A DNA stretch of 64,000 nucleotides from Candidatus Bathyarchaeota archaeon (GCA_029259355.1 JAPDIZ010000003.1:147710-211709), one strand, 5' to 3'; positions 13,456 through 55,251 are shown, counted from the stretch's first letter. The notes: generated by a model not told the origin, from the letters alone. A program made the numbers and translations.

Positions 13456-14808
13456 ATAAACAAATGAAAAGGTTAATGAGTCTATTATGATCAGCAATAT
13501 AAGGATACAACATAATAAGGATAAGGATTTTTTGACGTACTTCTCCATTAAAGCTGCTGCAAATACGCAACATGGAATATCTAGCGTCAAACCCCAGCGA
13601 TCTGGCTCTGGCCAAATAATAGGCCAAAGTGCTTGTACTACTAAGAATAAAGTTGTTAAGAATAAGACTAAAAAGAAAATATAATTTTTAAGTTCTTTGC
13701 TTCTTAAAATGAATATTATTGAAAGTACTGTTAACCAAAATACCCATTCAAAAAGTTCGAATGTTAGGTGCAGTTTGTTGTAGAAATATTCTTGCATTGT
13801 AGGACTTAAAAACATTGGATTGGAGATTTGTTCAATAAATATTGATAAGCGATTTGGTTTGAGCCAATTTGCTACACGAATATAAAACATAAGAGAAGTA
13901 CCTGTTAGTAAACATGCAATAATCACCTTTACCAGTTTTGTCAAAAGAGATCTGTCTTTAGTTAACCATATGTATACTATAGTAGATAAGAAGAAGAACG
14001 TTGCTATCGCCTGATGAGAAAGCCACATAGCTGAAATTGCTAAATAAGTTTTAATTGGAAACTTGGGCCTATCTGTAATAATGAAATAAAATGCCAGTAA
14101 TGCAAAAAAATATGCAATAACTTGCCTGTAGAGGTCTAGAACCAAACGCATATGAAGTGTAGAAAATGAAAACAAAATCGTCGCCAGTCTAGTTTGAAAA
14201 CCATCACCATAAAAATGTCTAGAGATCATATAAAAAGGAATTATAGAAAGAGCTGAAAACATTGGAATCAGAACAGTATATATAAATCTGAATGAAAACA
14301 ATTCGAAGAAGAGCCAGAGGATTATCATAGGTAGTATATCATAACCACCCTTAACCGAAAGAATACAAAGTGGATCATCGTGCATCATTTCCAATAATTT
14401 CATGTATTTATAAGTGTCAGAGCCCATAGGTACGGAAGAGAAAACAAACCAGATGCAACGATACAAAAAAGCAAAAATAATCGTAGATAAAAGAAAGAAT
14501 TTACTATCTATTTGTAAAATAATTTCCCCCAATAATCGAAACCTAATTTCGAGGAGATTCTTAACTTTATCCCAAACATGGGGTACGCTGATAAGCGATG
14601 CCCCACCAAAAGTTAAGGCCATTCCAACTTCTAAAATTCTGTAGGAAGGGAGAGTCGGCTTGTATAACCATCTCATAGTTCCGACTATGATGAAAAAAAG
14701 CCCTAAGAGAAAAGCGACATAGGGCGATCTGTTACGTCGCACAGCTATGTTAAAGTTAACTTTGATCACCCCCATTTTATCATAGATCCCATTCATGATT
14801 TTTTGCAA
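13441..14808 (-). CDS. Polytopic membrane protein, family D copy 2; function unknown
   Basis: 455 aa and a paralog of 1604..2935 (motifs listed there). It overlaps the upstream gene at 14793 by 16 nt on the same strand, which suggests co-transcription. Confidence 0.8.
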   Translation of the reverse strand: MQKIMNGIYDKMGVIKVNFNIAVRRNRSPYVAFLLGLFFIIVGTMRWLYKPTLPSYRILEVGMALTFGGASLISVPHVWDKVKNLLEIRFRLLGEIILQIDSKFFLLSTIIFAFLYRCIWFVFSSVPMGSDTYKYMKLLEMMHDDPLCILSVKGGYDILPMIILWLFFELFSFRFIYTVLIPMFSALSIIPFYMISRHFYGDGFQTRLATILFSFSTLHMRLVLDLYRQVIAYFFALLAFYFIITDRPKFPIKTYLAISAMWLSHQAIATFFFLSTIVYIWLTKDRSLLTKLVKVIIACLLTGTSLMFYIRVANWLKPNRLSIFIEQISNPMFLSPTMQEYFYNKLHLTFELFEWVFWLTVLSIIFILRSKELKNYIFFLVLFLTTLFLVVQALWPIIWPEPDRWGLTLDIPCCVFAAALMEKYVKKSLSLLCCILILLIIIDSLTFSFVYLSPH

Positions 14809-19094: not shown

Positions 19095-19807
19095 ATGACT
19101 ATAGCCTTAACACGTCTTGACCTAAAGTTTCGAATACATAATGAAAGAGTGTTTAGTATATTTCCTCCGATTAAACTATTTTTCAATAGAAACCCTTTAA
19201 TCAAGTATTTAGAGAGAAAAAGGGCCGCCACTGTTGCTAAGTTATCCAACATTCGTCAAAATTCGCTCAAGCTCGATTTAGGCTGTGGAGACGGATTTAT
19301 TACCAAAGACTTAAGTGGATGTGTAGTAGGCTTAGACCTTTCTAGAAAGGCTCTCCAACTTGCAAAAAGCCTATTTTGTAAAGGATCTAGATTTGATTTC
19401 ATTCTCGGAGAAGCTTCGTCACTTCCGTTTAGGGATGAAGTTTTTGGTGCAGTAGTTTGTAGTGAAGTCTTAGAACATGTCCCCTATCCAGCGAGAACTT
19501 TTGATGAAAAAGTAAGGGTTATGGATAATCAGTCATACCTTATCATCACACTCCCTAAGGAAAGGAACATAAAAATGTGAAACGAATTCTTAAATTACTA
19601 AGGCTATCCAAGATTTTCTTGAGAGAGTTACCAGATGAAGAGATTACAGATAGTTGGCACATAAGTCATATAGAGATTCGGTGGCTAGTCAAAAAACTCA
19701 TAAGAAGCGGGTTAAGACTAAAAGTTCAAGGACGCATCCTATGGTTTTACCCAATTCGATCAATCCTTGTTTTTTACGAAGGCCGAAGATCAAAAGTAAA
19801 GGGCTAG
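19095..19807 (+). pseudogene. Class I SAM methyltransferase split by one frameshift (track ORFs 19095..19580 and 19577..19807)
   Basis: ORF 1 carries LDLGCGDGF, GLDLS, PFRDEVFGAVVCSEVLEHVP and LIITLPKERNIKM*. ORF 2 continues with KRILKLLRL...WHISHIEIRWLVKKLIRSGLRLKV, the expected C-terminal strands. The junction is at the A5 run 19571-19575 (ataaaaatgtga). Confidence 0.7.
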
Positions 19808-24323: not shown

Positions 24324-25616
24324 TTAATTTTCATATAGACAAGACAACCATTCGTAACCCTTTAAATCTTTTGCACATCGACAAAGGTTCCAAATCTTAT
24401 CGAATTTCTCAAAAGCGATTCTTTGGTGAAGAGGTGTCGGAATTACAAATTCCCCCCTTTTGAATGAGTAAATAAGGGGGGAGCCGTAGAGATTTGTCGA
24501 AAAGATTGCAAGAAGTATAAGTGCTGCATATAGAAGAGTTGAGAAACCTTTCTTATTTTGAAAAATTTTAGTAATTCTCTTTAGTCCATAGGCAGTTGCT
24601 GTAAGGAAGAAAGGCGTAAATTGCACCATATATTGATCAAAGTGTGTGGGAATGAAAAATATATAAAAGAGGTAGCAGTAAATAGCCCAGATAAAAAGGA
24701 AATATCTTCTTTCGACAAATAAGTGTATCATGCCGTATAGCATCAATACAAAACATATCAGACCAACGCCTAGAGATAGGGGAAGCCATAGAAGTATGTC
24801 GCTGTGAAAAAATGGAGGAAAAACATGACTTTTAGAAATGTGTCCCCTATACCAGTAAATTCTGTTAACGATTGGATAAATGGGGTGGCCGTAACGTATC
24901 AGACAAATGAAGGCAAACGGTAGAGAAGTTACTAAGAAAGAGAATAGTAAAGCAAATTTTTCCTGAAAACTAAGCCTTCTGATGTTTATAATGATCCAGA
25001 GTAATAATGGGAGTGTTAAGTAGGGAGCGCTTTCTTTAGCCCACATAGTTAATGCAAAAGACATTCCTACTAGAGATGTAAGCACGTACTTTCGTTTTTC
25101 GTCACTAGTGTAGCTTACGAATAGGATCGATGCAAGCCCAAAAGTTAGTATTGTAAAAGCAGCTAGCATAACATCGTTTATTAGTCTATGAGCATACCAC
25201 CCTATGTGCCAGTTCCACCCAACCAACAGAGCTGCTAAATACCCAATTTCTTCGTCCCCAAGGTAATGTTTGCCCACAAGATAAGCTCCTAGCATCAATA
25301 TAATCATAGAAAATAGACCCCAGCTACAGAGCACGTAGAGAAAGCTCGGAAAACCGAATAGCTTGTATAAAACGCCAATGTAAAGAGGCAACATTATCAT
25401 TTTGTCATCAACGATGGGGTATTGAAAAGCATTCCTCGATATATTCTCCACTAGATAAACACCAGTCGATATTATCCAATATTCGTCAGGGTAGCCTCCT
25501 CTCGGAAACCCTCCATAAAACCAAGCTAGAATGAAATGATAGACAATCGTTGCAAGGAGCAAGACCTTATACAAGACGCTCTTTGCATTACCTAAACTTA
25601 ATGCGCCGTGAAACAT
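24324..25616 (-). CDS. Polytopic membrane protein, family C copy 2; GT-C-like
   Basis: 430 aa with YPDEYW, LFGFPSFLY, VGWNWHIGWYAHRLINDVM and MWAKE. It is a paralog of 6164 and 53867. Confidence 0.8.
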   Translation of the reverse strand: MFHGALSLGNAKSVLYKVLLLATIVYHFILAWFYGGFPRGGYPDEYWIISTGVYLVENISRNAFQYPIVDDKMIMLPLYIGVLYKLFGFPSFLYVLCSWGLFSMIILMLGAYLVGKHYLGDEEIGYLAALLVGWNWHIGWYAHRLINDVMLAAFTILTFGLASILFVSYTSDEKRKYVLTSLVGMSFALTMWAKESAPYLTLPLLLWIIINIRRLSFQEKFALLFSFLVTSLPFAFICLIRYGHPIYPIVNRIYWYRGHISKSHVFPPFFHSDILLWLPLSLGVGLICFVLMLYGMIHLFVERRYFLFIWAIYCYLFYIFFIPTHFDQYMVQFTPFFLTATAYGLKRITKIFQNKKGFSTLLYAALILLAIFSTNLYGSPLIYSFKRGEFVIPTPLHQRIAFEKFDKIWNLCRCAKDLKGYEWLSCLYEN

Positions 25617-25829
25617 TTTTCATATAAGTCTGTCATGTTCCTCGCTTTTAAGGCTAAGCCTCCATCATTTTATCCAACAAATAGGAGCCACCACAAAACC
25701 ATACAAAAAATTATCACATGTATGTAATTGGTATTGAGCGCTTCATATCTACTCAAAACCAATCTCTTCACAAACTCGATATATTTGATGCTACACAATA
25801 TGTCACTCAAATATAACTTGAATCTTTAT

Positions 25830-27254
25830 TTATGGCTGTTTACGCTGTTGAAAACCTTCGCCCATTTGTTTATGCGCTAAGAAGGAACTTTTTTCTGCAG
25901 GAAAAATTAGATATAAAAGCGATGTGAAAGAAGAAATTATTAGCACATAATGAAGATAAAGCATTACGTTAAAAAGTAGAGGCCTACTGATTTTATCAAT
26001 TCCCTCTAAGTAAGAGATTATTTCACAAATCCTCCACGGGTTACTCCACGACAATATTTTTGGGTATGCAAAGCCCAATAAGACAGTTCTTATGTCGTAG
26101 AAGTTGATTTTAAGGTCTTCAAAATATATAAAAATGAGGGGATGAATTTGATTAATTGATACTACACATAGAAGGAGAACTAATAAACAAATATATCGAG
26201 AAATATATGGAGAGAGATTCGAAGCCCGTAAGTACGCGAACATCTCACGAAGGCCTAGAGCTTCCATTAATAGAAGAGAAGGCATGAAAATAGGGGGATA
26301 CCAGTCACAATAATATGCTACCACAGTAGAAGTCCCGCAAAACATAACGATGAAAAAGAGTAGTGCATAAAGATAGTTTTGTTCTCTTTTCTTTAGGAAA
26401 TACATAATTGAGATGCATACTCCATAGATAAAAATGACAAAATTAGGAAAGGGCAAGAAAAAATGTATGCGCTTGATATAAGAAAGATACATCCAATAAC
26501 CCTCCCTATAAAATGTTGTACTACGAATCTGCCATCCTCCTCCCATTAAATTTAACATAGGTCCAAAGGGAGAACCTGTGTGTACTGTATTGAGGTAAAG
26601 CCACGGAAGTAGCGTAAATATAATTGCAATAACGCCTAAGCTAAATTTTTCTATTTTCTCCATACTAAGATTTTTTCTTGTAAGAACCAAAAACAATATA
26701 TAAAAAATGAAGAGGAAAGAGGCAAAATATTCTGCCTCAAAAGCTAGAGCAGAAAAAATTCCTAATAGAGGGAACCAGTACCATTTGGAATTCTCTTGCA
26801 AGCACTTCCAAAATATATACGTAGAAATCAACATAAGTGTTGAACAAATAGTCGTTATGCGAGTTTGATTACTAAAATACCAATAGATATAGGATAAGCC
26901 AAGAAGTACGCTAAAGTAAAACCCTACTTCTTCATCAAACAGATCCGAACCTAAAACATATGCAAAAATAATAGCTAGCAAATTTATTAACGGAAAAGTA
27001 TAGAGAGAAAGTTGCACTGAATATTCGACAGGACAACAAAATGCATCGCATATACGAACAATTAAAGAAATAACGGATTGAATGAAAAGTTCTCCCCTAG
27101 TATCTAGCTGCGTTAAGGTTACGTCTATGTTATAGCCAGCTAAATAATAGCCAGCCAGTATTCTTTCTGGCCCCTCTCCACCTATATGCACATAAGGCAA
27201 TAAAGCTATGTGAGCAACAACTATGAGTAGCAACAAAAACTTACGCCACCACAT
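25830..27254 (-). CDS. Polytopic membrane protein, family E copy 1; GT-C (PMT_2-like) candidate
   Basis: 474 aa with AGYYLAGYNIDV, INLLAIIFAYVLGSDLFDEEVGFYFSVLL and GIFSALAFEAEY. It is a paralog of 55252..56640 (GMYLAGYDIPYD, MLFDRRVGLVAAAL, ALAFLTRY). Confidence 0.78.
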   Translation of the reverse strand: MWWRKFLLLLIVVAHIALLPYVHIGGEGPERILAGYYLAGYNIDVTLTQLDTRGELFIQSVISLIVRICDAFCCPVEYSVQLSLYTFPLINLLAIIFAYVLGSDLFDEEVGFYFSVLLGLSYIYWYFSNQTRITTICSTLMLISTYIFWKCLQENSKWYWFPLLGIFSALAFEAEYFASFLFIFYILFLVLTRKNLSMEKIEKFSLGVIAIIFTLLPWLYLNTVHTGSPFGPMLNLMGGGWQIRSTTFYREGYWMYLSYIKRIHFFLPFPNFVIFIYGVCISIMYFLKKREQNYLYALLFFIVMFCGTSTVVAYYCDWYPPIFMPSLLLMEALGLREMFAYLRASNLSPYISRYICLLVLLLCVVSINQIHPLIFIYFEDLKINFYDIRTVLLGFAYPKILSWSNPWRICEIISYLEGIDKISRPLLFNVMLYLHYVLIISSFTSLLYLIFPAEKSSFLAHKQMGEGFQQRKQP

Positions 27255-27342
27255 AGTAGTATGATTTTAACACCTAAATAAAATATTAAGGATTCGTTGT
27301 TTTGATTAAGACTTACCTAGGCTTTAGGAGCAAAAAGCCACA

Positions 27343-28031
27343 TGATGGAGCTTACAATCTATGAAGCTAAACTATAATGGGTACTCTACCAGAGATAACC
27401 AAGTTTGCCTCACTTATTCCTTTATTAATAGCTACTTTGACAACATTAGATAGTGTATATAGAGCAACATTTTGACCAATATATGAAAGATAATTTTCAA
27501 AGGAGTAGCCTTAGGCAACCAGATTTCTTAGTTAAAACAGGTTATTCCTCTATCATAGCCTAACAAATAGATGAGATGCCTTAGAACCTCACAAAACGAT
27601 CCAAGAACTTAAGCCAGATTTAGTAATCGTGTTAAGAGACACAAACCCCACACTAGCAAGCGTGTCGACAGCCTCAAAACTGCATATCTGAATCATCCAT
27701 ATAGAAGTAGGTCTAAGATGATTCGATAAATCGTTACCTAACCTAAAGAAATAAACAGGATCTTAGTTGATCATATGTCTACCCTCTTCTTCACCTCTTC
27801 AAAATAGCCGAAGAAAATTTAAGAAAAGAGAGACTTTGTAGAATTAAGAGGCTTGTGGCTCGTTATCCCGAGCTATCCGTTATCCCATACGTGTTTTTAT
27901 TATACGTGTCCATCCCCATACGTGTTATACACCAGAAGTAAATACCAGATCAAGGATGTGAGAAGTATTCTTTTCACTCTCACAGTAAACTTAGAGAAAT
28001 TTATATTTCTTGCTCACCCAAGACTTTCGTA
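27343..28031 (+). pseudogene. Heavily decayed UDP-GlcNAc 2-epimerase (wecB-like) pseudogene
   Basis: Fragments in shifting frames, with stops between them, follow the order of the intact copy at 3844. GTLPEITKFASLIPLL matches GTRPEIIKLSSIV. QELKPDLVIVLRDTNPTLASVSTASKL matches KPDIVVVEGDTNSALGAALAA. IIHIEVGLR matches AHVEAGCRS. PKEINRILVDHMSTLFF matches PEEINRRLISQCATLNF. FIFLAHPRLS matches IVFPIHPRTR. Confidence 0.7.
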
Positions 28032-28373
28032 GCTACCTGGTAATTATAAATTTTAAGTGTAGAGTAGAAAAAGAGAAGATGTCCATATCTTTAGGTTACA
28101 TAATAGCATGAATGGTAATGACGCTAAAAAAGGAGTTGAGAACGAGCTTTAGTGTGATTATACGAGTTTAACAAGATATGTGGGTAGTTTAAGATCTTAC
28201 AGCGATCATTATCTATTAAGGGAGATAAGAAATATGCAAAAATTCTGTTATAAAGTAAGGACTAACTTTAATTTTATACTATAAAAATTACGATACTCGA
28301 CGCTCGTACAAGATGTTAAATCAAAAAATTTAAAACAACAAAGAAGCAGTTTACCTACAACTCGTGATTAGGG

Positions 28374-30155
28374 TTGTCGAATCAAATTTTTTCAAGACAC
28401 ATAGATACCAGAAGCATTAGGAGAAGTACTGCTATCCTTTCTGTAGTAATGATTGCTTTTGGCTACATCCTTCTATTTACGCCCTTCTATACATTTGGTC
28501 TCCTCATACTATTTGGCTTAATATTGTACCATTATTTCTTGCAAAAAATGACGGTATATTCTCTTTTCAGGAAATTTTTTCTAATTTATGTTCTGATTCT
28601 ACTATCTATCGCTACGATTCTCAACAACTTCTATAATGAAATCAATAATGCCATAGTATCTCTTGGTTACACTTCAGATATCACTTATCTTTTCCTCCCC
28701 AACCTATCCTCTACCGGTTTTCTCAGGCTTTTTCCAAAAGAATTACGCATCCTCATCATTTTTTTCATAAATTTGTTTTTATTTTCCGCCATTATTTTTG
28801 TATTCTATCCAAATAGGTTTATCTCCATTAGAAAGGTGAAGTGGACTATAGATGCGGTTAAAATAAGTATTAAGAGAGAATTTATGCAAATCTTAACCAC
28901 ATACCTATTAGTTTTTTCTTCTATATGCTTAGTAGCTCTTACAATTATTAAATTGACTTCGGGCTTAGTGTTGCCTTCATACATCACCTTCCTCTTAAAA
29001 GTAGTTTATTACCTGCGGAATACGACGGTTATTATACCTTATATAGTCCTTCCACTACTCGTGTTAAAACCAAACATCTTCCGAATGTTTCACCAATTTC
29101 TTGATGAAACTATATTATCTTGGAAATCTACAAAGCTAAAGCTTTATCACTTCGTAATTATTCTCATAATTTCTTGGTTCTTTTATCTTAATTTTGCAGT
29201 AACACCTGTTGATAACCCCAATCTCTGTATGTTTGATGATAGATTGTATCATCATATCTGGGTATATATGAGGGAAGGAGTTAATTTTTATGAGGCATGG
29301 AAAGTATTCTTTCCATCGAATACAGAAGCCTATATGCACTGGTCTCTTCTTTTCTATCTATGGGCAGTTTGTAAAACAGTACCTTGCGTCAAAGTAGAGT
29401 ATTTTCTTCTCAGTACAGTAGCTGTGGTTAGTTCGTTTTACTTAACAAAAAAGCTTACTGAGAATTCGTTTATAGGAGTGCTTTCGATGCTATACATTAT
29501 GTGCTTTTACTCGAGAGGGTTTTTCTGGTTTATGTTGGATCAGTGGGCTGCTGTTCCTCTATTGATAGGCTTGATGTTTTTAGCTTATGGAAAACACTCG
29601 CTATCGGCTACATTTTTTGTTTTGGCGTTTTTCTTTAAAGAAACTACTGTTATTCCACTGTTTGTAGCGACGCTGCTTTACTCCATACCTTCTGTGAAGA
29701 GGATAGCTTTAGGAGATAGATCTAGGGAAAGCCTTGAGAGAACATCGTATTTAATTGGATTTTTATTGATTCTGGTATTTATGATGATACATTCAGCAAC
29801 TTACACCGGGTCAGAGTATGCGCAAAAATTCCTCAAAATATTTGCTCCACACTATTTTGTGCACCAACTTTCTTGGTTTATGTATCCAGTAGGAATCATC
29901 AACTTCTCTCTAGCCATCACTGGTGTTTTCCTCATTAAAGACGATAATAGGAAGAAACTCTTTCTAATATTGGCAATAATCTCTACTCATTTATTATTCT
30001 TTGCATACAATAAACCATCTGAGGGCTCCGCAAGAAACTGTGTAGCAGCCATTGTAATTGAATACATACTGGCGCCCATAGGGCTGAAAATAACAGAGGA
30101 AAGAGTGGCTGAGCTAGTCCTAGGCAATTCTCAGATAAAAGTAGCAAAGAGATGA
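28374..30155 (+). CDS. Polytopic membrane protein, family A copy 2; function unknown
   Basis: 593 aa with a TTG start. Motifs: DNPNLCMFDDRLYHHIW, EGVNFYEAW, CKTVPCVKVEYF, SRGFFWFMLDQW, FFFKETT, FAPHYFVHQLSWFMYPVGIINFSLA, SEGSARN. Confidence 0.85.
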   Translation: MSNQIFSRHIDTRSIRRSTAILSVVMIAFGYILLFTPFYTFGLLILFGLILYHYFLQKMTVYSLFRKFFLIYVLILLSIATILNNFYNEINNAIVSLGYTSDITYLFLPNLSSTGFLRLFPKELRILIIFFINLFLFSAIIFVFYPNRFISIRKVKWTIDAVKISIKREFMQILTTYLLVFSSICLVALTIIKLTSGLVLPSYITFLLKVVYYLRNTTVIIPYIVLPLLVLKPNIFRMFHQFLDETILSWKSTKLKLYHFVIILIISWFFYLNFAVTPVDNPNLCMFDDRLYHHIWVYMREGVNFYEAWKVFFPSNTEAYMHWSLLFYLWAVCKTVPCVKVEYFLLSTVAVVSSFYLTKKLTENSFIGVLSMLYIMCFYSRGFFWFMLDQWAAVPLLIGLMFLAYGKHSLSATFFVLAFFFKETTVIPLFVATLLYSIPSVKRIALGDRSRESLERTSYLIGFLLILVFMMIHSATYTGSEYAQKFLKIFAPHYFVHQLSWFMYPVGIINFSLAITGVFLIKDDNRKKLFLILAIISTHLLFFAYNKPSEGSARNCVAAIVIEYILAPIGLKITEERVAELVLGNSQIKVAKR

Positions 30156-30211
30156 ATTCGGAAAAATATGTACCAAAAAGGGTTTAAATTACGCTAAACA
30201 GAGGATAAGGC

Positions 30212-31912
30212 GTGAGAATACTAGCCTTTATTTTTCAAAGATTTTTCCTATTTCCTATTGATTTGTACAGTATTTTTAGGATGGTGGCTATCGCTTTCAT
30301 CTTAACTACCTCATCTATGCTAAGTTTGGCATTTATTGCCGGAAGCGACGTTAGGTATAAGGTATTTGTTGTTGCGGAAGGAGAAGATGAGTTCCAAGAA
30401 GTTAAGCAGGTTTTGGAAAAATCCCTTGAAAACGTAGTGGTTTACGATATCCGCTATGAAAACAACGAACTCGCTACGCTTACGGAGCTTAACTGCGTGA
30501 GAACGATTGTTTTAGTATACGATGGCGACATTCAATTCCTGCTCCAAAGAAATGTCCTTATTAGCTTGGAGAGGGTAGATGAATGCGTGCTTTTTTCCAG
30601 AGGTGAGCTACCTCCCGAGGAGGTTCTGCAAATCCTTGACAGTCTACTGAGATCTAGGCTTAAGGTTGCGAAGAGCTACTCTGAATTAATCAGCAAGCTC
30701 CCCGTGTATAGGCGCAGAAGCTTCTTCAGCATAAACTGGGATACCGAGACATACTTCCTTCTCGTTAGAGCTGTCGGCGTCGCTTCTCTGCTCACCATCT
30801 TCTTTGGCGCTGCTCTCTTGAGTATAACGTGTTTTTTGCTGAGAGCCCTTGTCAGAGATGAGCTAGCTTTCTTTTCGGCATCGCTTACCTCGGCATTCTT
30901 GATCTTTACCACCATACAGATGGCTTACGTCGTATGTAGCTCCGTTTTGGAAATCCCCTTAGGACTGCACTGCACAAAAATAGGATCTAGCCCGTGGAAT
31001 TCGCTTACCATCATAGGTATGTTAGGGCCTTTTGGCGGAGGAACTTTTCCAAGACTTTTCGCTGGGTTAACTGGCTTTTCGCTAAGCACAATCGCTATCA
31101 CGTTAAGAAGAGAAGCTGATGAAGCTGTATGCTATCTACCCTCTCTAAGGACTAGACTTTTCATAGCTTCCTTGGTTCTGGTGGGAGCATACTTTGCGTA
31201 TACCATTTCATCGCTTAATGAACTCATTAACCAGCCCATTGTTGGGGAAGTACTTTGCCGCAAAATGATAAACTCATTCGCCATCTACCAAGATTTGCTA
31301 GTTGGTAAGGCCGTTCCGTCGAGGGGGATAATCCTATACTACATCGGCGTCTCTCTGTTTTGCGCCCTACTCTTAGCGAGGTCTAAGGCGTTCTCAGCAG
31401 CTTCGCCTATAGCGGCTGTTTTGATTGCTTGGGGGTTGATGAGGGTGGGTAATCTCAACCTTGAGCAAGCTATGTGCAGCTCGATTATCGGAGTGATGCT
31501 TGGCTTTGCAACGTTTCTGCTATGCGCAGCGTACCTCAGCCTCCTAAATAATTTTCACAGACTTTCGAGCACGGATGCTAAGAAGCTTCTACACAGCTCT
31601 GAGTTTAGACGAGAAAGCATCGTCTTAACGTGTATAGCGCTTCTCTACTGTACGGCTTGGAGTAAGCTTAGCGGTACTTTACTCCCACTTTTCGCGCTAT
31701 GTACAACATACTTTCTCTTGCGCACCAACTTGAGGAAAAAGCCCTACATAGCAGCGATGTGGATGATTCCAGCAGCTGCTTCTATGCTGCTACTAATGCT
31801 GTGTATACCTACTGAGGTCTTGTTTCCTGCTATTCTCAGCGCATGCGCTGCTAGATGCTTTGACACATATCATAAACCATTCAAAAGACTAAGCTCTGTA
31901 CTGTGCAGTTAG
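30212..31912 (+). CDS. Membrane protein, family B copy 1: N-terminal anchor, a soluble domain of about 150 aa, then a polytopic domain; function unknown
   Basis: 566 aa with a GTG start. Motifs: KVFVVAEGEDEF...LNCVRTIVLVYDG, LEIPLGLHCTK, LGPFGGGTFPRLFAGL, AWGLMRVGNLNLEQ. All are shared with 50251..52011. It lies 56 nt downstream of family A copy 2. Confidence 0.85.
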   Translation: MRILAFIFQRFFLFPIDLYSIFRMVAIAFILTTSSMLSLAFIAGSDVRYKVFVVAEGEDEFQEVKQVLEKSLENVVVYDIRYENNELATLTELNCVRTIVLVYDGDIQFLLQRNVLISLERVDECVLFSRGELPPEEVLQILDSLLRSRLKVAKSYSELISKLPVYRRRSFFSINWDTETYFLLVRAVGVASLLTIFFGAALLSITCFLLRALVRDELAFFSASLTSAFLIFTTIQMAYVVCSSVLEIPLGLHCTKIGSSPWNSLTIIGMLGPFGGGTFPRLFAGLTGFSLSTIAITLRREADEAVCYLPSLRTRLFIASLVLVGAYFAYTISSLNELINQPIVGEVLCRKMINSFAIYQDLLVGKAVPSRGIILYYIGVSLFCALLLARSKAFSAASPIAAVLIAWGLMRVGNLNLEQAMCSSIIGVMLGFATFLLCAAYLSLLNNFHRLSSTDAKKLLHSSEFRRESIVLTCIALLYCTAWSKLSGTLLPLFALCTTYFLLRTNLRKKPYIAAMWMIPAAASMLLLMLCIPTEVLFPAILSACAARCFDTYHKPFKRLSSVLCS

Positions 31913-32162
31913 GTTACCTTAACATATTTATGAAGAAAATTTTTTAATTGTTTTTATGGGTTTTGCGAGGGAAATATTTCCCAGGCTTATCATTTCGCTA
32001 CCTAGATTGTTCGTTGGTTTATTGCAGCTTATTCTAGACAAATCTGAGAGGAAGTGTCCTGCTAATTTATCACTAATTGGGAAAACGGAACTATCTCGAG
32101 GAGTGATATTGCTTTTTTAGGCGCATTAGCGCTATCAACTACTTTATACGTAGAGGAGCATC

Positions 32163-32502
32163 ATGGCGAAGGCATCAGCAAAAAAGGGATTAGGGCTTTT
32201 CGGAGCCCCGATTATATCCATTTCGTTGACTTTCTTATACCTCCTTGTTTTTCATGATTAGTTGGGGTTGACTGAGGTAGGCAATATTGTCTTTCGTTCG
32301 GTCTTTAGTTAGCATATTCCTTGCTATGATTATCTCATTTGAAGTGATAATCGCATTTTTCGGCTTGGATAACCTATTGGCGACTTTATCCTTCAGAGAC
32401 GCAACCAAATTTCAAAACCATACTTCGGAAATGTTTGGGCTATTTATCGTATTATGCAATTTTCAAGGGAAATTTGCACGATTTCTAACAATAATTTTGT
32501 AA
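32163..32502 (+). pseudogene. Possible relic of a second Wzx-type flippase 5' region
   Basis: MAKASAKKGLGLFGAPIISISLTFLYLLVFHD is followed by an in-frame TAG and then LGLTEVGNIVF. After a frame change it reads SLVSIFLAMIISFEVIIAFFGLD.. (track ORF 32287..32502). The pattern resembles the ..G..........RLLGPQDYG....... opening of the intact flippase at 32890. Confidence 0.3.
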
Positions 32503-32889
32503 TCCTTAGTTCACTTTTGATAACCCGTAAACTGCTTAAAATTAGAGAAGCATGGTAATCTGTAATTGCCTCCTTTTCGATATTTGTCGTTATCACGCCG
32601 ATAATGCTTTACCTACTTGTTCAGCACATTCCTTTACAATTCTTCTTAACATCCATCCTTCTTCTAATTAGCTATTAGTGCGACATAGCCGATGTACTAA
32701 GACAGTACAGCTCTTCTAACAGACCCCAGTTCTGATTGATTGCAGAAAAATTAAGGGGTAAAGCACAATAAGAGGTCTACGCGGCTACTCTACTCGCTCT
32801 ATGAACAACGGGGGAAATCAGCTATTAGGCAACAAATTGACTCTCAGGAATGGTCGTCAGGTAAAGCGCTCGCAACTGGTTCCTTTGCT

Positions 32890-34380
32890 ATGTTGCTTGG
32901 ATCGACCATAGCAAGACTATTTCAAATTATTTACGTAATCTTTGTTGTACGCCTTCTTGGTCCACAAGACTACGGTCTTCTCGCGCTTGTACTCGCCGTA
33001 ACTGGAGTTATTACTTCAGTAATAGATCCTCACGTAGGTCTCGCTACCGTTAAGCTTTACACAGAGAAGCAAGACCAACACTTTCTATACATCGCCCTCA
33101 TTTTCTATATTTGTGTAGGAGTAGCTTCAGCAGTTGTAATCCTTCTCTTTGGTGATATTGTAATTGCTAACCTAGCTGGGTCGCAAGCTAGCGAACGTCG
33201 TTTTGACCTTGTATTGATCTTTATTAGTCTTTTGATAATATTGATAACTACTAATAGTTTGTATTCAACACTCTTCGAATCCTTCTTTTTATTCAGCTAT
33301 GAGGCGCTTATGATAGCTACTAGACGCATACTCATCTGTATACTTGCAGTAGTAGCTCTGTTTTGGGGATACGGGCTCTTAGGGGTATTTGCCGCAATAA
33401 TCGCCGGGTACTTGATTCCCCTTATAATCCTTATGCCAATAGCTTACGAAATACTAAAAGCGCAAATTAAGACAAGGATTCGTGTAGGCATTCTGTGGAG
33501 CAAATTTGTCGAAGTTCTACAGTTTGGCATTCTTGCCTATATCGCTACCGTCATGTATCAATTTTACACATCATCCGACGTTATCTTAGTTGGATACTTT
33601 AGATCGCTCTGGGATGTTGGACAATATAGCGCAGCACTTCGCTTAGTTAATGTTGTTTTGCTTATCCCATCAGCGTTTATCTCGGTATTAATGCCAGTTG
33701 TGTCGAGGATTTCTGGAGAAAAAACTCTAAGTGAGCGCGAGATATCATCCATAGTAGGACTTACGCTTAAGTATACAATGATCCTAGCAGTACCCTTTTG
33801 CATGGTTTTATCTGCCAATTCTTTCCTAGTGATAACAAGCCTTTTTGGGATTAGTTATCAATATTCGACGGAAGTGCTTCCCCTATTATCAATTTTTGCA
33901 ATATTATTAGCATCTTACATCGTTTTCGACTCTACTTTGGTGGGGTTGGGTAAGCTCATCGAGAGGATATTAGTTTCGCTGACCATGTTAATATGTGGAC
34001 TGATTCTGCACATAGTTCTAATACCTACGATAGGCATATACGGGGCAGCGCTATCTATGCTTCTCTCAGCTGGAATTGGTACTCTCTCTGCTATGTTCGC
34101 TCTTCGCTTAACACCCTCAAATCTCCTGGCTGCTAACGTTGCCAAATTCGCGATAGCCTTAACTCCCTTAGCCCTTTCATCGCTAATAGCAACTACTCTC
34201 ATGAACAGCTTAGCAGGTATTTGTTTGTTAACGATCTCTTTAGCAGGCTATGCTTTGCTGCTTTTGCTTCTAGGAGTAATCGATGAAAAAGATCTCGATA
34301 ACTTCTCAAAAGTATCCATGCTTTCCCCAATTGCTAAATTTGGGAAGAGCGTTCGGAAGAAAGTTTTGAAAAGAGGCTGA
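32890..34380 (+). CDS. wzx: Wzx-like polysaccharide/oligosaccharide flippase (MOP superfamily); the 5' end is probably frameshifted
   Basis: About 12-14 TM segments, with FVVRLLGPQDYGLLALVLAV near the N-terminus. The frame is open upstream (..SGKALATGSFAMLLGST..) with no start codon. An ATG at 32801 lies one frame off, across a G5 run at 32810-32814. Adding one G gives MNNGGKSAIRQQIDSQEWSSGKALATGSFAMLLG. Confidence 0.82.
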   Translation: MLLGSTIARLFQIIYVIFVVRLLGPQDYGLLALVLAVTGVITSVIDPHVGLATVKLYTEKQDQHFLYIALIFYICVGVASAVVILLFGDIVIANLAGSQASERRFDLVLIFISLLIILITTNSLYSTLFESFFLFSYEALMIATRRILICILAVVALFWGYGLLGVFAAIIAGYLIPLIILMPIAYEILKAQIKTRIRVGILWSKFVEVLQFGILAYIATVMYQFYTSSDVILVGYFRSLWDVGQYSAALRLVNVVLLIPSAFISVLMPVVSRISGEKTLSEREISSIVGLTLKYTMILAVPFCMVLSANSFLVITSLFGISYQYSTEVLPLLSIFAILLASYIVFDSTLVGLGKLIERILVSLTMLICGLILHIVLIPTIGIYGAALSMLLSAGIGTLSAMFALRLTPSNLLAANVAKFAIALTPLALSSLIATTLMNSLAGICLLTISLAGYALLLLLLGVIDEKDLDNFSKVSMLSPIAKFGKSVRKKVLKRG

Positions 34381-34387
34381 TCCCAGA

Positions 34388-36346
34388 ATGCGATTCGTAT
34401 TAACCATTAGCAACTTATGCGCAGTTAGCGATGCTGAAAAATTTTGCTACGGTTCAAGAGAGATTCTCAGACGCATTGGCATTTCTTGGATTGAAGCCCT
34501 AGTTAATGATACGAATGACTTTATAAGCAAAATACACTCCCTAAATGATACAATTCTTGGATTCTTCTTGCTCGAAAGAGATCCACTTTTACCTGATTTA
34601 ATAAGAGCTATTGAAGAATGTAGGAAAACCTCCCTCATATACCTATTCCAAGAAACGCCCAGAATTTTCGTAAGCTCTCCGAAAATACTGAGATGGAAAC
34701 TTTTTAATAAAATGAAAGAATTTCCAATAATCTTTCAAGCAAAAACCTGTAATATCTCAAGTTATTGCAAGAATTCCGAATTCTTTTTGGAAGTTGCAGA
34801 ATTATTAGATTTAGAGCGAAAAAAATTGGGAACTTGCGTTGCTAGCGCACGTAAGCTAAATCCTCCCTACGTATTTTATTGCCTATTTGGCTTTGAGCTA
34901 CCCCTAGTAGTAGCTGATTTTTTGAGCGGCTCTGCTCAGCTAACGCTCGCTAAGCGAACGCATAACTCAAGATTACTATGCCAAGGAAGTTTGCTAATGA
35001 AGTACAAGCTTAACGTCCAACCTCTCGTCGATGAGCTGTCTAGGATTGTTCACGCGTCATTAGTAACACAGCTTGGTCACTTGAAGATCCCTCTTTTAAC
35101 AAAAGCCATATGGCCACCTAACAAGATAGCTTGCGTGTGTCTAACACACGATGTAGATAAGCTAACTCCTCACTGGTCTCAACTGTTGAAAAGAACAAAG
35201 CTTTACACAGCAAAGAGAAGACTTGCTGAAATAATCCCCTCGATTTTATCATCACTCCTCATAGGCCTTTCTAGAGCTCAGCACAGAATAAGGTCTAGGG
35301 CAAAAAATGGATTTGATGCTCTGAAGTTTTTCCCCTATAGCTTACTTAGGAAATTCCAAGATATTTTATACGTTGGAGGATTTGAAAAATACATGGATGT
35401 TGAGAAAAAAAATGGCGCAAGCTCTACATTTTTCATTCTGATAAACAAGAGCGATATGGACAGCAACTATGACATAAACTCTCCAGCACTTGCGCTGATT
35501 TTGCGGGACATTATACAGAGAGGCTGGGAAGTATCCTTACATGCAAGTTATTTCTCCCTTGATTTGGAGCAAATTCTTCAAGAAGAGAAAAAATTGCTTG
35601 AAGCAGTTATTAAGGAAAGAGTTGCGGGTGTCAGACAACACTACTTTAGGTTTAATCCTCCGAATACGTGGATAGCACAAAGTAATGCAGGCTTTACTTA
35701 CGATACAACACCCTACTTCCCTGACGAAGTAGGTTTCTACTTCAGCACATGCTTACCTTTCTTCGCTTACGATTATGTAAACAACAGAGAGCTAGACTTA
35801 GTTGAAATTCCATTATCTATTAACGATACCACACTCTTTCACTATATGAAGCTGAACATCGAAGAAGCTTTTCACCGTTGTAAGGAACTTATTGATACAA
35901 TTTATGATCATATGGGGGTTTTAGTAATTAACTGGCATATGCGCGCCTCTCATAACGACGATTTTCCAAGGTGGTTTTACCTTTACGAAAAGATCTTAGA
36001 ATATGCTTGTCGATCCAATGTATGGGTGCCTACATGCAGAGAGGTTGCGCAGTGGTGGAAGATACGAGATAAAACCAAAGTGCGAGAATTCATCTTTGGT
36101 GATGGAGTACTGAAAGCGACGATCGATTTGCCAGATATGTGCGAAGAAATCGCCTTTGAGCTAGTTATACCGAGTGGTATGAAAGTACGAAGAGCCTACT
36201 TGTTGCACAGAGATCTAGTCAAGGAGATTAGTGTTAGCAAAGTTGGGGAGATTCATGCAGAATTCGGTGTTTTTCAGAAGTATTCCCTTTCGCTCCATAG
36301 ACCGCAGGTAGGTGTTAGCGAATTGGTGGTTAAAATTGAAAGATGA
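34388..36346 (+). CDS. Two-domain protein: an uncharacterised N-terminal region of about 240 aa plus a polysaccharide deacetylase (CE4-like) domain
   Basis: 652 aa. CVCLTHDVDKL, SSTFFIL, GWEVSLHASY and AGVRQHYFRF fit the D-D / H-H metal-site layout of CE4 deacetylases. I recognise no motif in the N-terminal region. Confidence 0.7.
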   Translation: MRFVLTISNLCAVSDAEKFCYGSREILRRIGISWIEALVNDTNDFISKIHSLNDTILGFFLLERDPLLPDLIRAIEECRKTSLIYLFQETPRIFVSSPKILRWKLFNKMKEFPIIFQAKTCNISSYCKNSEFFLEVAELLDLERKKLGTCVASARKLNPPYVFYCLFGFELPLVVADFLSGSAQLTLAKRTHNSRLLCQGSLLMKYKLNVQPLVDELSRIVHASLVTQLGHLKIPLLTKAIWPPNKIACVCLTHDVDKLTPHWSQLLKRTKLYTAKRRLAEIIPSILSSLLIGLSRAQHRIRSRAKNGFDALKFFPYSLLRKFQDILYVGGFEKYMDVEKKNGASSTFFILINKSDMDSNYDINSPALALILRDIIQRGWEVSLHASYFSLDLEQILQEEKKLLEAVIKERVAGVRQHYFRFNPPNTWIAQSNAGFTYDTTPYFPDEVGFYFSTCLPFFAYDYVNNRELDLVEIPLSINDTTLFHYMKLNIEEAFHRCKELIDTIYDHMGVLVINWHMRASHNDDFPRWFYLYEKILEYACRSNVWVPTCREVAQWWKIRDKTKVREFIFGDGVLKATIDLPDMCEEIAFELVIPSGMKVRRAYLLHRDLVKEISVSKVGEIHAEFGVFQKYSLSLHRPQVGVSELVVKIER

Positions 36347-42326: not shown

Positions 42327-44174
42327 TTATTTGATTTTGAAGATGATTACTTCTTCATTCTCGTACACTGGTCTAAAAGCTTTGTAATATTCGAGAAGTT
42401 TAGTTTTGTTAACCTCATTCTTTGGTATCCAAAGATACTTAACGTCATATTTTTCGAGAACCTTTTTGACATCACTTATTGACCAATTAGAGCTTATTTC
42501 GCTAGAGTAGATGGTTTTGTTAAAACTTCGTCTAATATCTCTTTCGGAGGCGCTGATTAAGCTAAACGTGGATATAACTCCAGAAGTAGTTTTGTTTCCA
42601 GAAAGAGCTGGAATAAGCCAAGAAATTTCTGTAGGAGCCCATACAATGTCCTCAGGATTGGAGTTGCTCTCTAACCATTTAAAAGCGCGGAATTGATAAA
42701 TAGAGATGAAACAAGGATGTTTAGGAACCCATCGAAGAGTGAAAAGCATTAAACCAAAAAATGTTGATGCAATTAAGGAAATAGTCAATATAGTTAACAT
42801 AATATACGCAAAGAGTTTATGGATAACATTACTAACCTTGGCGATCTTATCAATAAAAACGATTACCACAACAGCACTTATTGGAACTAAACTTATTCTA
42901 AACAAACCCATTGAATAATCCTGCATAGGAAAAGTTGTGGGTATATTGAGATAATCTTTTGGTAAGAAAGGAGCGACTGAGAATACGGTCCCACTTACAA
43001 GGATGAGGACTAATATGGCGTTTAAATCCTTGATAAATTTCCTTAAGTCTAGTATTCTGATAATCTTCCAGCAAATAATGCCGAGAACAGTAAGTATAAA
43101 CATTAATCCAAAAGCCTCAGGATATTCCCATAAATACGGCATTTTTGGTCGGCCGTAAGGTGTGTATGCGTATCTAAGAGAATCAATTAATTGCCATGTA
43201 ACACTTACTATTTGAGGATTACTAAGATACAGCATTACTAGGGGGGATGTTATAGCCATATATATTAATACAACTATAACCAGTTTAATGAGAAATACCT
43301 TTATACCCTGTTTTATATCATGCTGTAATTCTACCATAAGTAGACATATGAGAGTAACAATTATCCAAACAGAGCTAATGGGGGCATGAGTTAATGTGGC
43401 AAATCCTAGCAACAATCCTACTAGAGCAGAATTTTTTGAGAAAATAGAAACTCGATCTACTTCTTTTGAAAAAATAACCAGCGATAAAGCCAGCACACCA
43501 AACGCAGTTGATAGTTTTCTGTAAGGAGGCATAAGAAAACAAACTCCACCTAGTCTTAAACGCATTCCCCAGAAATTATATAGAATATATGTAATCTTCA
43601 TTTTTATCTCGGCAGGAATAGAAAGAGTAGGTGATCCGGACAATATACCATGTACAAAGTTAGAGAGAAGGTAGTTATGTCTTACAGCAATATGTAGAAG
43701 CCTCAACCAAGATAGCGAATTACCATACATTACAAGCAACATCGCATGAAAAATGAACATACTCTTTTTCTGATTATAAAATATTTTCGAAAAAAATAGG
43801 TAGAAAGCAAAAAATAATCCTAAGTCTGCAAGCAACGAAATGAGAAAGTATGAAACAAAAACTGGAAGGCCAGTAACAATAGAGAGAAGAGCGCATAATG
43901 AGAAGAAGAAGGGGGGTTGTGGAATTGGGGGACTATGAGGATCAAAGGGGCTTCTGATAGGAAAAATTTTTCCTTCTAAAACCTCTCGGGCAGCTCCGAC
44001 ATATCCGGGTAGATCACCAAGTAAGCCTATGTATACTCCCTTTCTAACTCTCATTAAATAGCAACCATAAATAACGGGAAGAGCTTCTCCAAAGAAACAT
44101 AAGACAAGGAGGAGGGTAATCAAGATAGTTTGATTTTTCCATATCTTTACTCTTCTATACATTATAACACCCAT
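42327..44174 (-). CDS. Large polytopic membrane protein with a C-terminal soluble domain; GT-C-like candidate (singleton)
   Basis: 615 aa and hydrophobic for about 480 aa. A non-membrane tail follows (FKWLESNSNPEDIVWAPTEISWLIPALSGNKTT...YDVKYLWIPKNE...). I recognise no diagnostic motif. Confidence 0.7.
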   Translation of the reverse strand: MGVIMYRRVKIWKNQTILITLLLVLCFFGEALPVIYGCYLMRVRKGVYIGLLGDLPGYVGAAREVLEGKIFPIRSPFDPHSPPIPQPPFFFSLCALLSIVTGLPVFVSYFLISLLADLGLFFAFYLFFSKIFYNQKKSMFIFHAMLLVMYGNSLSWLRLLHIAVRHNYLLSNFVHGILSGSPTLSIPAEIKMKITYILYNFWGMRLRLGGVCFLMPPYRKLSTAFGVLALSLVIFSKEVDRVSIFSKNSALVGLLLGFATLTHAPISSVWIIVTLICLLMVELQHDIKQGIKVFLIKLVIVVLIYMAITSPLVMLYLSNPQIVSVTWQLIDSLRYAYTPYGRPKMPYLWEYPEAFGLMFILTVLGIICWKIIRILDLRKFIKDLNAILVLILVSGTVFSVAPFLPKDYLNIPTTFPMQDYSMGLFRISLVPISAVVVIVFIDKIAKVSNVIHKLFAYIMLTILTISLIASTFFGLMLFTLRWVPKHPCFISIYQFRAFKWLESNSNPEDIVWAPTEISWLIPALSGNKTTSGVISTFSLISASERDIRRSFNKTIYSSEISSNWSISDVKKVLEKYDVKYLWIPKNEVNKTKLLEYYKAFRPVYENEEVIIFKIK

Positions 44175-45393: not shown

Positions 45394-45525
45394 ATTCTTG
45401 CACGTCCGAGTCCAATCAATGGGTCAAATCGTATTCTTTAGCTTGACATCTTCGACATAAGTAATTCTTAACGAGATTGATTGTCATAATCTTTAGAAGA
45501 CTAAAGTATTAGGCCTATAGATGAG

Positions 45526-46284
45526 TTGAGAGGACCCCTAAACTACGCCTCGGAGAGCATTTGCATGTCCTTAGAGGAGAATGGTTGGAGATATGCTTTG
45601 AAAGCTCATGGAATTCAGAGAATTATCCCTGATAATGCCAAGAGGGGAATCGTTCTTGATTTGGGATGCGGAGATGGCAATCTTGCTGCAACCGTCTTTG
45701 GTAAGGAGTCGGTAGAAAGAGTTGTAGGAGTAGATATTTCACCTAACGCTTTAAAAAAGCCAAAAGAAGAATCGGTTCCTTAGTTTTAGGAGATGCTGCA
45801 CACCTACCTTTTCGCGACTTAGCATTTGATGGAGTAATCTGCAGCGCTGTGATTGCGCACTTAACTAGAGACAAAGCTATAGCTACACTACTAGAGGTTC
45901 ATAGAGTGCTTGCTGATGAGGGATTTCTCGTACTTCTTACGGTTAATCGAGAACCACTAAAAGAGAAGATTATGAGGAGAACTAAGAAAATACATTGTTA
46001 AGGAACACATATACGAGTACTCTTATAAGGAGCTAAAGGGTTTGGTAGAAAGCTTCTTCTATATCACAAAAAAATTAGGAGTGCATCTCAATGTTTTATA
46101 TAGTCTTCAAAAACATCTAATTAAATACAAACTTTTTTCCTCTCTTATTAAACGTATGATACGTTTTGCTCCCATCTCTTTGAGTACATGGATGATTCTC
46201 CTTTGCAGAAAAACAGAAGATTCAAAAATCTCAGAGAAAAAGTTGCGTACACAGGGAGTTGCTCAAGGTTTTATAAAACACTAA
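45526..46284 (+). pseudogene. Class I SAM methyltransferase broken by two frameshifts
   Basis: Frame 1: VLDLGCGDGNLAA...VVGVDISPNALKK then PKEESVP*. Frame 2, from the A6 run 45753-45758: AKRRIGSLVLGDAAHLPFRDLAFDGVICSAVIAHL...LADEGFLVLLTVNREPL...KKIHC*. Frame 3, from around the A4 run 45987-45990: IVKEHIYEYSYKELKGLVESFFYITKKLGV... (track ORF 46042..46284). Confidence 0.75.
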
Positions 46285-46325
46285 CCGTGGAGGTAAATTA
46301 GTGGGTGAGCTGGTGAGTCGCGTCT

Positions 46326-52011: not shown

Positions 52012-52099
52012 CTTAAAAAAGCTGTGATAGTATTGTTTTCCATGATGTCTTAGATGAGGGGTTCGTTTCATCCCCATAAAAAGTTTTTAAAGGTGCTAT

Positions 52100-53851: not shown

Positions 53852-53866
53852 GGAAAGAGTGGTTTG

Positions 53867-55138: not shown

Positions 55139-55251
55139 TGTCTCTAACCACCTAATGCTTCCAAGATTTGGGTATTTGAGAATGGGTTTCTAGCTACTCC
55201 ATTCTCTAAAACCTTTTTGGAGCTAGATTACTAAAAGAAACCACCACATTA

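Follow-up and report, generated by a model that had tools for sequence, protein, structure and literature searches.

Background

Ligases and polymerases that use sugars linked to a lipid diphosphate carry their conserved residues entirely at the membrane's outer face; in WaaL two Arg residues bind the diphosphate and one His activates the acceptor, and the polymerases of clan GT-C3 combine a long N-proximal outer loop with two Arg, one Asp and one His (PMC10920833). In this study we analyzed a stretch of 64,000 nucleotides (nt) from a Candidatus Bathyarchaeota archaeon (GCA_029259355.1, JAPDIZ010000003.1:147710-211709), hereafter called the window, and within it the locus at 28374-31912, where a gene of one membrane protein family, A, is directly followed by a gene of another, B. 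By analogy with the enzymes just named, family B may be an outward-facing transferase of lipid-linked glycans with a ligase- or polymerase-like role, a reading to which we give a probability of roughly one in three (0.35). In archaeal surface glycan pathways, the enzymes for polymerization, for ligation to acceptors other than Asn and for the flipping of sugars linked to dolichyl phosphate (Dol-P) have still to be identified, and exosortase-linked exopolysaccharide (EPS) loci often carry an O-ligase-like membrane protein (TIGR03097).

Membership and size classes of family B

The families of the window were defined by an all-against-all BLASTP comparison of its 40 open reading frames (ORFs) of at least 150 residues. 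Family B has two copies there: B1 (30212-31912, + strand, GTG start), an orphan archaeal membrane protein of 566 residues whose database gene call (P0001, 566 residues) is the same as our ORF, and B2 (50251-52011, +), which is 32% identical to B1 (E 1e-73). An exhaustive HMMER search of 1.84 billion representative sequences with a profile built from both copies gave 70 relatives at E<=1e-3, 45 of them at E<=1e-10, and the closest of these is P0005 (about 24% identity). The members are unnamed in every source, their sequence clusters hold just one to four members each, and literature searches found no description of the family. For B1, B2 and all 55 aligned members, neither Pfam-A (hmmscan, E<=0.01 to 0.1) nor NCBIfam offered a consistent family, and the B profile matched nothing among the PDB sequences, so that the distinct membrane protein family proposed in the initial annotation is borne out. 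GTDB and JGI gave no match in pattern scans for B1 and B2, for P0005 or for the profile of the short forms, the long-form profile was absent from IMG/VR, and word-indexed searches with B and the B profile, in which hydrophobic words filled the limit of 8000 candidates, returned only the proteins of the window itself. All contexts in which B has so far been seen are archaeal or archaeal-like, and B is a rare integral membrane protein family that is probably restricted to archaea.

The members differ in what surrounds a common core. Short forms of about 420-450 residues consist of the core alone, and in long forms of about 680-780 residues the core is preceded by a signal peptide, then by an outer domain that is rich in sequons and about 200 residues long, a transmembrane (TM) helix and a K/R-rich loop. 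B1 has instead a C-terminal extension of about 120 residues (31550-31912, +; residues 447-566) with three to four hydrophobic helices, modelled at a predicted local distance difference test score (pLDDT) below 50, which is found only in the window copies and in P0005 and is missing from the short forms.

Predicted structure and conserved residues

The AlphaFold model of B1 made with the 55-sequence alignment has a mean pLDDT of 80 and a predicted template modelling score (pTM) of 0.78, with values mostly above 90 over residues ~20-300 and ~370-450 and of 58-75 over residues ~300-370; an earlier model made with a two-sequence alignment had a pLDDT of 42, and its membrane part was unusable. In the model, an anchor helix, TM1 (residues 18-43 of the model; annotated at 30269-30340, +, residues 20-43), for which we infer an N-in orientation, leads into an extracytoplasmic five-strand alpha/beta domain of the flavodoxin/CheY type (30341-30742, +; residues ~44-177), and this is followed by the conserved membrane core, TM2 to TM8 (30743-31549, +; residues 178-446). 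This agrees with the N-terminal anchor, alpha/beta soluble domain and polytopic membrane part that had been read from B1 initially, and the roughly ten TM segments counted then correspond approximately to the seven core helices of the model together with the three to four low-confidence C-terminal ones. Foldseek placed 0 PDB structures and 0 viral structures at E<=1e-3 against the model, and the one part with a resemblance is the soluble domain, to folds of the generic flavodoxin, CheY or B12-binding kind (TM-score ~0.57). Profile comparison found the TM core unrelated to GT-C glycosyltransferases, family A, the archaeosortase-like proteins described below and a putative permease, and no internal repeat of the kind seen in carriers was found in it.

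The topology was derived from positive-inside statistics over the 55 sequences together with the model. Counted as K+R minus D+E, the stretch ahead of TM1 has a net charge of +5 and the soluble domain one of -5.2. Loops 4-5 and 6-7 carry +1.5 and +1.3 and the segment following TM8 +2.7, and loops 3-4, 5-6 and 7-8, which bear H253, R281 and R411, are charge-neutral. These values point to a protein whose N-terminus, tail beyond TM8 and loops 4-5 and 6-7 are inside and whose soluble domain and loops 3-4, 5-6 and 7-8 are outside. With this predicted topology, all of the conserved polar motifs of the family would face outward, namely GPDPR at the junction of anchor and domain, PLxLH, GxFGGGxxPR, SRG and RVGxMxPxK. 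Across the 55 sequences H253, G288 and G408 are invariant, R281 is conserved in 98% and R411 in 91%.

In B1 itself H253, R281, G408 and R411 lie within motifs that had been singled out at the outset, and all of these motifs, like the GTG start, were found where they had been placed. LEIPLGLHCTK (residues 246-256, 30947-30979) contains H253, GPFGGGTFPRL (residues 272-282, 31025-31057) contains R281, and AWGLMRVGNLNLEQ (residues 406-419, 31427-31468) contains G408 and R411. C254, next to the invariant His, is not conserved, the family consensus there being LHA. The soluble domain opens with the GPDPR motif, in the form GSDVR in B1, and the peptides KVFVVAEGEDEF and LNCVRTIVLVYDG occupy residues 50-61 and 93-105.

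Genomic context of family B

The whole 64-kb window is a glycan-assembly island. It encodes eight PMT_2-like GT-C proteins, four GT2 and five GT4 glycosyltransferases and a Wzx flippase, along with polysaccharide-deacetylase-like proteins, methyltransferases, WecB, two GFO/IDH/MocA oxidoreductases and a DegT aminotransferase, and further a hexapeptide acetyltransferase, an AsnB-like amidotransferase, a sulfatase and a phosphodiesterase. The same holds beyond this genome: all 25 loci of B relatives are glycan-assembly loci with GT4, GT2, PMT_2, Wzx, epimerase or deacetylase genes, and every relative with a readable context sits among such genes, as would be expected from the initial assignment of B to glycan assembly.

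Two kinds of neighborhood recur among these loci. The first is that of the window and its closest relatives. The P0005 locus is a very similar island from a related uncultured organism, in which B directly follows a PMT_2 gene and a second B copy on the same contig stands beside a Wzx gene. Wzx lies one or two genes from B in the window, in L002/L004 and in L092, where it is two genes off and a PMT_2 gene three genes off; in L008, B is followed by two successive PMT_2 genes; and other short forms of B, found on short contigs, have a GT2 or DegT gene for a neighbor. L002 (ENA ERZ25515408 NODE_23, 160 kb) carries a near-syntenic island of a related uncultured organism, with sulfatase, GT2, methyltransferase, AsnB, DegT, PMT_2, B and Wzx genes and a second B copy.

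The second kind of neighborhood emerged with the profile of one long-form clade, which led to 17 GTDB loci (L096-L112), all from metagenome-assembled genomes of Nitrososphaerales/Thaumarchaeota. When their ORFs are clustered, B turns out to be part of a conserved, co-directional operon that begins with Glycos_transf_4, a DUF354+HTH_45 fusion, polysaccharide deacetylase, GT4, epimerase and a fused ADH/GFO-IDH oxidoreductase, continues with cluster 4 (some of whose members are annotated as DUF7982), a protein of about 590 residues that is archaeosortase-like (cluster 5), B and a 120-residue PGY-motif membrane protein (cluster 6), and ends with a run of GT4 and GT2 genes followed by an ABC ATPase and a putative permease. 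Directly upstream of B, and co-directional with it, stands the archaeosortase-like gene in 13 of the 13 Nitrososphaerota loci that have upstream sequence, and the small PGY-motif protein comes after B in 14. An example of the operon core is L111 7388-12453. The small proteins directly downstream of long- and intermediate-form B, for instance at L005 12232-12627, L090 2738-3166 and L111 12091-12453, have 120-142 residues, three to four TM helices and the motif PGY(A/L)(F/V), and have no Pfam or NCBIfam match; they presumably resemble the membrane region at the N-terminus of archaeal DUF1616 proteins.

A putative outward-facing transferase

Considering the outward conserved residues together with this context, it can be hypothesized that B would use a conserved site rich in Arg, His and Gly to bind a polyprenyl-linked glycan by its phosphate or diphosphate head, and would pass the glycan on to a further repeat unit or to the final acceptor, in analogy to WaaL and Wzy. 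Its action would follow export by the Wzx flippase or the ABC transporter encoded in the same loci, and it could work alongside the adjoining outside-acting GT-C glycosyltransferases (family A and PMT_2-like), and its external alpha/beta domain might hold the acceptor or the growing glycan. What the data show is that the family exists and is rare, that it has a topology signal and that it is encoded in glycan loci; catalysis, the substrate and any partnership with A we infer. The Nitrososphaerota operon offers one point in favor of such a transferase: its first gene encodes a phosphoglycosyl transferase (Glycos_transf_4), the product of which is a lipid diphosphate-linked sugar, it carries an ABC transporter ATPase, and no Wzy, WaaL or STT3 is recognizable among its conserved gene clusters, which leaves B, besides the archaeosortase-like protein, as the only conserved polytopic protein of the operon without a role. 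H253, R281 and R411 also agree with the outer-face pattern of Arg/His (or Lys/Tyr) residues in the glycosyltransferases that use lipid diphosphate-linked sugars (CAZy GT119-GT135; PMC10920833), a pattern that is necessary, not sufficient.

Several points weigh against this assignment. D46 is conserved in 73% of the sequences, and B is thus left without a strongly conserved acidic catalytic residue. The clustering of the conserved residues in one pocket is assumed, and the topology that places them outside is itself a prediction from charge statistics and the model. Arg and His at the outer face are, moreover, a generic pattern, which could equally belong to a phosphatase, to the gate of a transporter or to a binder of lipid head groups. 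None of the Pfam families Wzy_C (PF04932), O-ag_pol_Wzy (PF14296), EpsG (PF14897) and O_anti_polymase (PF01901) has a match in B, and the GT-C(B)-fold proteins WaaL (7TPG) and the SEDS protein RodA/FtsW (6BAR) are absent among the best 50 Foldseek hits listed. In hhalign comparisons B reached 0.07% against the single E. coli EpsG-family Wzy and O2/O50 Wzy sequences, which is a weak test owing to the use of single sequences, and 0.1% against the GT-C profile of the window. Moreover, there are two B copies per island and per related contig, which is unusual for a ligase.

B fits no family that was tested and, at best, resembles WaaL or Wzy in how it works. Its surroundings are those of an ordinary archaeal glycan island, though one with unusually many GT-C genes; what is new is a structurally unmatched and unrecognized membrane component within a known type of pathway. 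The stronger proposition, that B stands for an unrecognized class of outward-facing transferase (ligase or polymerase) of lipid-linked glycans, with a membrane fold that has no solved relative, confined to TACK-type archaea and mechanistically coupled to an archaeosortase in Nitrososphaerota, seems unlikely to us; were it true, B would count as a missing enzyme, one joining exported glycans to polymers or proteins of the surface in archaea not using AglB alone. With about 70 sequence clusters, a confident model and outward residues that are invariant or nearly so (H253, R281, R411 and the GGG stretch), B is nevertheless a testable candidate for one of the missing steps. Its two reproducible contexts, beside GT-C genes in this lineage and, in Nitrososphaerota, with an archaeosortase-like gene on one side and a small membrane protein on the other, also offer a handle on how the envelope is built in soil and peat Thaumarchaeota.

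Family A and its pairing with family B

The neighborhood of B1 suggests a different role, in which B would be an accessory or partner of an outside-acting GT-C glycosyltransferase (family A or PMT_2-like), presenting the acceptor or delivering or scrambling a donor in the form of a polyprenyl phosphate monosaccharide. This would make B a functional analogue of the GtrA/ArnEF-type flippases of three-component glycosylation systems. Both window copies of B adjoin an A gene on the same strand, in either gene order: A2 (28374-30155, +; 593 residues, TTG start) precedes B1 with a gap of 56 nt, and B2 precedes A3 (52100-53851, +) with a gap of 88 nt. The ORFs and the gap of the first pair are exactly those described in the initial annotation. 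A2 is a polytopic membrane protein, and its database gene call (P0003) starts at the ATG at 28449 and has 568 residues.

The weight of this role depends in part on what A is. Family A has five copies in the window, at 8053-9783 (-), 28374-30155 (+), 52100-53851 (+), 59463-61199 (+) and 61269-63011 (+), with 34-52% mutual identity in BLASTP. It had been described as unassigned, and with respect to Pfam it is, the first three copies (A1-A3) having no family at E<=0.1 and the last two no match at E<=0.001. It is probably not wholly so, in that the C-terminal ~340 residues can be aligned to GT-C proteins. In hhalign, the A profile matched a profile of 13 PMT_2-like GT-C proteins with a probability of 77.7% (E 1.9e-5, 313 columns, A 235-575 against 8-352), and a smaller profile of six such sequences with 57%. 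The alignment, with the smaller profile as well, takes in the AFFFKE/AFWAKE helix (FFFKET in A2, 29628-29645), and about 130 residues upstream of this helix A has an invariant D288-D289 (29235-29240 in A2), which comes after a helix at residues 258-279 and at the spacing of the PMT_2-like DE motif. On this moderate evidence, the C-terminal ~340 residues of A are probably a divergent, PMT_2-like GT-C, to which an additional polytopic N-terminal region of about 235 residues would be joined. A relationship between A and B themselves was rejected by profile comparison, and a correspondence of A to the archaeosortase-like gene upstream of long-form B was rejected likewise (hhalign 0.2%).

If this assignment of A holds, a position of B beside a GT-C gene would be common to the window and to the closest B relatives, L002 (PMT_2-B) and L008 (B-PMT_2-PMT_2), and would not extend to the Nitrososphaerota clade. 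The window also combines small GT2 genes of the Dol-P-sugar synthase type with 13 GT-C-like genes and has no recognized GtrA-like flippase. Against this role stand the 17 Nitrososphaerota loci and L005/L091, which have no PMT_2-like or A gene within 10 kb, so that the adjacency to GT-C genes is not a feature of the B family as a whole. The adjacency is moreover weak evidence in itself, since GT-C genes are very dense in these islands, and the conserved residues of B are found on one face only, with none of the internal repeats typical of carriers. We regard a GT-C partner role for B as unlikely.

The pairing of A with B, as distinct from that of B with GT-C genes in general, appears to be local. 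It was initially suggested that a conserved A-B pair would be found in other genomes, which turned out not to be so: an HMM of the five A copies found no A gene at any of the 25 loci of B relatives, read up to 10 kb to either side, and the two pairs in the window are the only ones. No family A gene is present within the 21.7 kb that were read of the near-syntenic L002 island. Scans with the A profile pattern found no relative in GTDB genomes, JGI metagenomes or IMG/VR, and a word-indexed protein search for A, with candidates again saturated by hydrophobic words, returned only genes of the window. The A-B linkage is not conserved because family A itself is found nowhere else, and on present evidence the adjacency is confined to this genome.

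Even the two pairs of the window may not be independent of each other. Divergent from A2-B1 lie two PMT_2-like GT-C genes on the minus strand, C1 (24324-25616) and D1 (25830-27254), and their paralogs C2 and D2 (53867-56640, -) flank the B2-A3 pair, so that a module of four families occurs twice, as C1(-) D1(-) A2(+) B1(+) at 24324-31912 and as B2(+) A3(+) C2(-) D2(-) at 50251-56640. Paralogs from the two modules are 21-48% identical. As both adjacencies fall within copies of one module, they perhaps amount to one independent observation, and both may descend from a single ancestral adjacency. The A-B pairing matters less for the interpretation of B to the extent that it appears local to one genome.

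Possible archaeosortase coupling or transport

The long-form neighborhood gives rise to another possibility, namely that B is part of, or coupled to, the processing of surface proteins by an archaeosortase and links C-terminal sorting or anchoring to glycosylation. The fixed order of cluster 5, B and the PGY-motif protein in the Nitrososphaerota operon speaks for it. The cluster-5 member of L091 is clearly of the exosortase/archaeosortase family (TIGR04178 at 64 bits, cutoff 23; XrtA 7e-27), but the Nitrososphaerales cluster-5 proteins taken alone reach just E 8.6e-4 to Exosortase_EpsH. The AsnB-like and XrtA-type deacetylase-like genes of the window are typical of exosortase-linked EPS loci; yet a six-frame HMM search of the 64 kb found no archaeosortase-like, DUF7982-like or PGY-motif small gene, none of the three stands beside short-form B either, and B is unrelated to cluster 5 (hhalign 0.1%). 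We consider such coupling quite unlikely. That B is itself an exosortase or archaeosortase (PF09721, TIGR04178) was rejected, with no Pfam or NCBIfam match, a TM core at 0.1% against cluster 5 and a C254 that is not conserved.

Very unlikely, finally, is a transporter or permease for a glycan precursor or a small anion, for example a carrier of the sulfonate/sulfate type that would serve the sulfatase-family genes, or a permease of the ABC-2 kind whose outer domain stands between TM1 and TM2. In its favor, ABC-2 and MacB-type permeases commonly show the layout of TM1, outer domain and TM bundle, genes for sulfatases and phosphodiesterases recur at the loci, ABC2_membrane_2 (5e-4) and the RbbA permease (1.4e-3) are each weakly matched by one member, and GxFGGGxxP is, as we presume, like the glycine-rich motif of TSUP/TauE carriers. 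On the other side, 54 of the 55 members have no such match, TauE was never matched in the Pfam scan, no transporter fold came up in Foldseek, the TM core is free of internal repeats, no ATPase gene adjoins B at any locus, and a Wzx or ABC exporter is already encoded there. An identity as an ABC-2 permease was rejected on the single weak match among 55, the lack of an adjoining ATPase gene and a value of 0.1% in hhalign against the putative permease cluster 13. The transferase reading and these three rivals leave part of the probability unassigned.

Signals at the A2-B1 junction and other features of the island

The spacer between A2 and B1 (30156-30211, +) is 56 nt long and contains TTTAAATT at 30183-30190 and a Shine-Dalgarno-like (SD-like) GAGGA motif at 30201-30205, 7 nt ahead of the GTG of B1. 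TTTAAATT had been pointed out as an element compatible with either a promoter of B1's own or co-transcription; its position stands and its statistical weight as a promoter does not, as it occurs in seven copies in the 64-kb window where 12.6 are expected, and TATA-like motifs upstream of the window genes show no positional enrichment, SD-like motifs being frequent there. There is no terminator-like hairpin in the 56-nt gap, and a scan of 27200-33000 for sigma-70 promoters and terminators gave no more than chance. From the sequence alone, neither a promoter of its own for B1 nor co-transcription with A2 can be favored.

Upstream of A2, the 1.1-kb spacer at 27255-28373 includes a pseudogene fragment of a UDP-GlcNAc 2-epimerase (27611-27804), which is 45-48% identical to residues 91-153 of WecB (tblastn E 9e-9). 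Downstream of B1, the 978-nt stretch at 31913-32889 holds no ORF of more than 71 residues and is followed, 978 nt after B1, by the Wzx-type flippase (Polysacc_synt; 32890-34380, +). The true start of Wzx may lie upstream or be disrupted, given that its residue 2 aligns to position 9 of the Polysacc_synt profile. Further on, 34388-36346 encodes a protein of 652 residues whose C-terminal ~200 residues match polysaccharide deacetylases of the VimE/XrtA type (2.5e-25) and whose N-terminal ~340 residues have no family match.

Elsewhere in the island, the PMT_2-like genes begin at 1604, 6164, 13441, 14793, 24324, 25830, 53867 and 55252, and together with the five A copies they amount to thirteen GT-C-like genes in 64 kb, which is unusually dense for glycosyltransferases acting on the outside. 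The ORFs at 42327-44174 (-, 615 residues) and 13441-14808 (-, 455 residues) have no Pfam or NCBIfam match; the latter is a paralog of 1604-2935, itself a weak match to PMT_2. The remnant of a class I methyltransferase is present in two frame-shifted pieces at 45394-46325 (tblastn E 2e-10 to the ORF at 19095-19580). WecB (3844-5184) is at most 50% identical to any protein of the GTDB representatives, and its best matches are mostly archaeal (Bathyarchaeia, Methanomicrobia and Conexivisphaerales). An identical fragment of the contig is present in an ENA metagenome assembly (L001), and Rfam and tRNA scans of the window returned nothing.

Comparison with known systems

Among known families, the closest to A, though not to B, is the PMT_2/ArnT-type GT-C (GT39/GT83-like), from which A differs in having no Pfam GT-C match, an extra N-terminal region and no homolog found outside this genome. 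The window as a whole recalls the GtrA/GtrB/GtrC and ArnC/ArnEF/ArnT systems, which consist of a GT2 synthase, a small flippase and a GT-C, in that it likewise mixes small GT2 genes with many GT-C genes and has B beside a GT-C-like gene. However, B, with 566 residues, eight or more TM helices and an outer domain, is unlike the 4-TM flippases GtrA and ArnEF, and its linkage to GT-C is not conserved in the long-form clade. The XrtA/EpsH exosortase-linked EPS loci provide a parallel to the long forms, which are likewise fixed beside an archaeosortase-like gene in a polysaccharide operon; B, though, is by sequence neither an exosortase nor EpsI nor a Wzy_C ligase, and the window is without an archaeosortase-like gene.

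The comparison that comes closest to the proposed role is with the O-antigen ligase WaaL and the Wzy-type polysaccharide polymerases (CAZy GT119-GT135). B differs from these in that no HMM, profile-profile or Foldseek match (WaaL, SEDS) connects them, and in having only eight core TM helices and a folded, flavodoxin-like outer domain in place of a loop. Like B, they are polytopic, are encoded in glycan loci next to Wzx or ABC exporters, and have all their conserved residues on the outer face, among which Arg and His are the key ones. The resemblance would be most specific to clan GT-C3 (GT122-124), which has been described as having an N-proximal loop, two Arg, an Asp and a His (PMC10920833); likened to that description, B would present its N-proximal outer domain together with R281, R411, D46 and H253.

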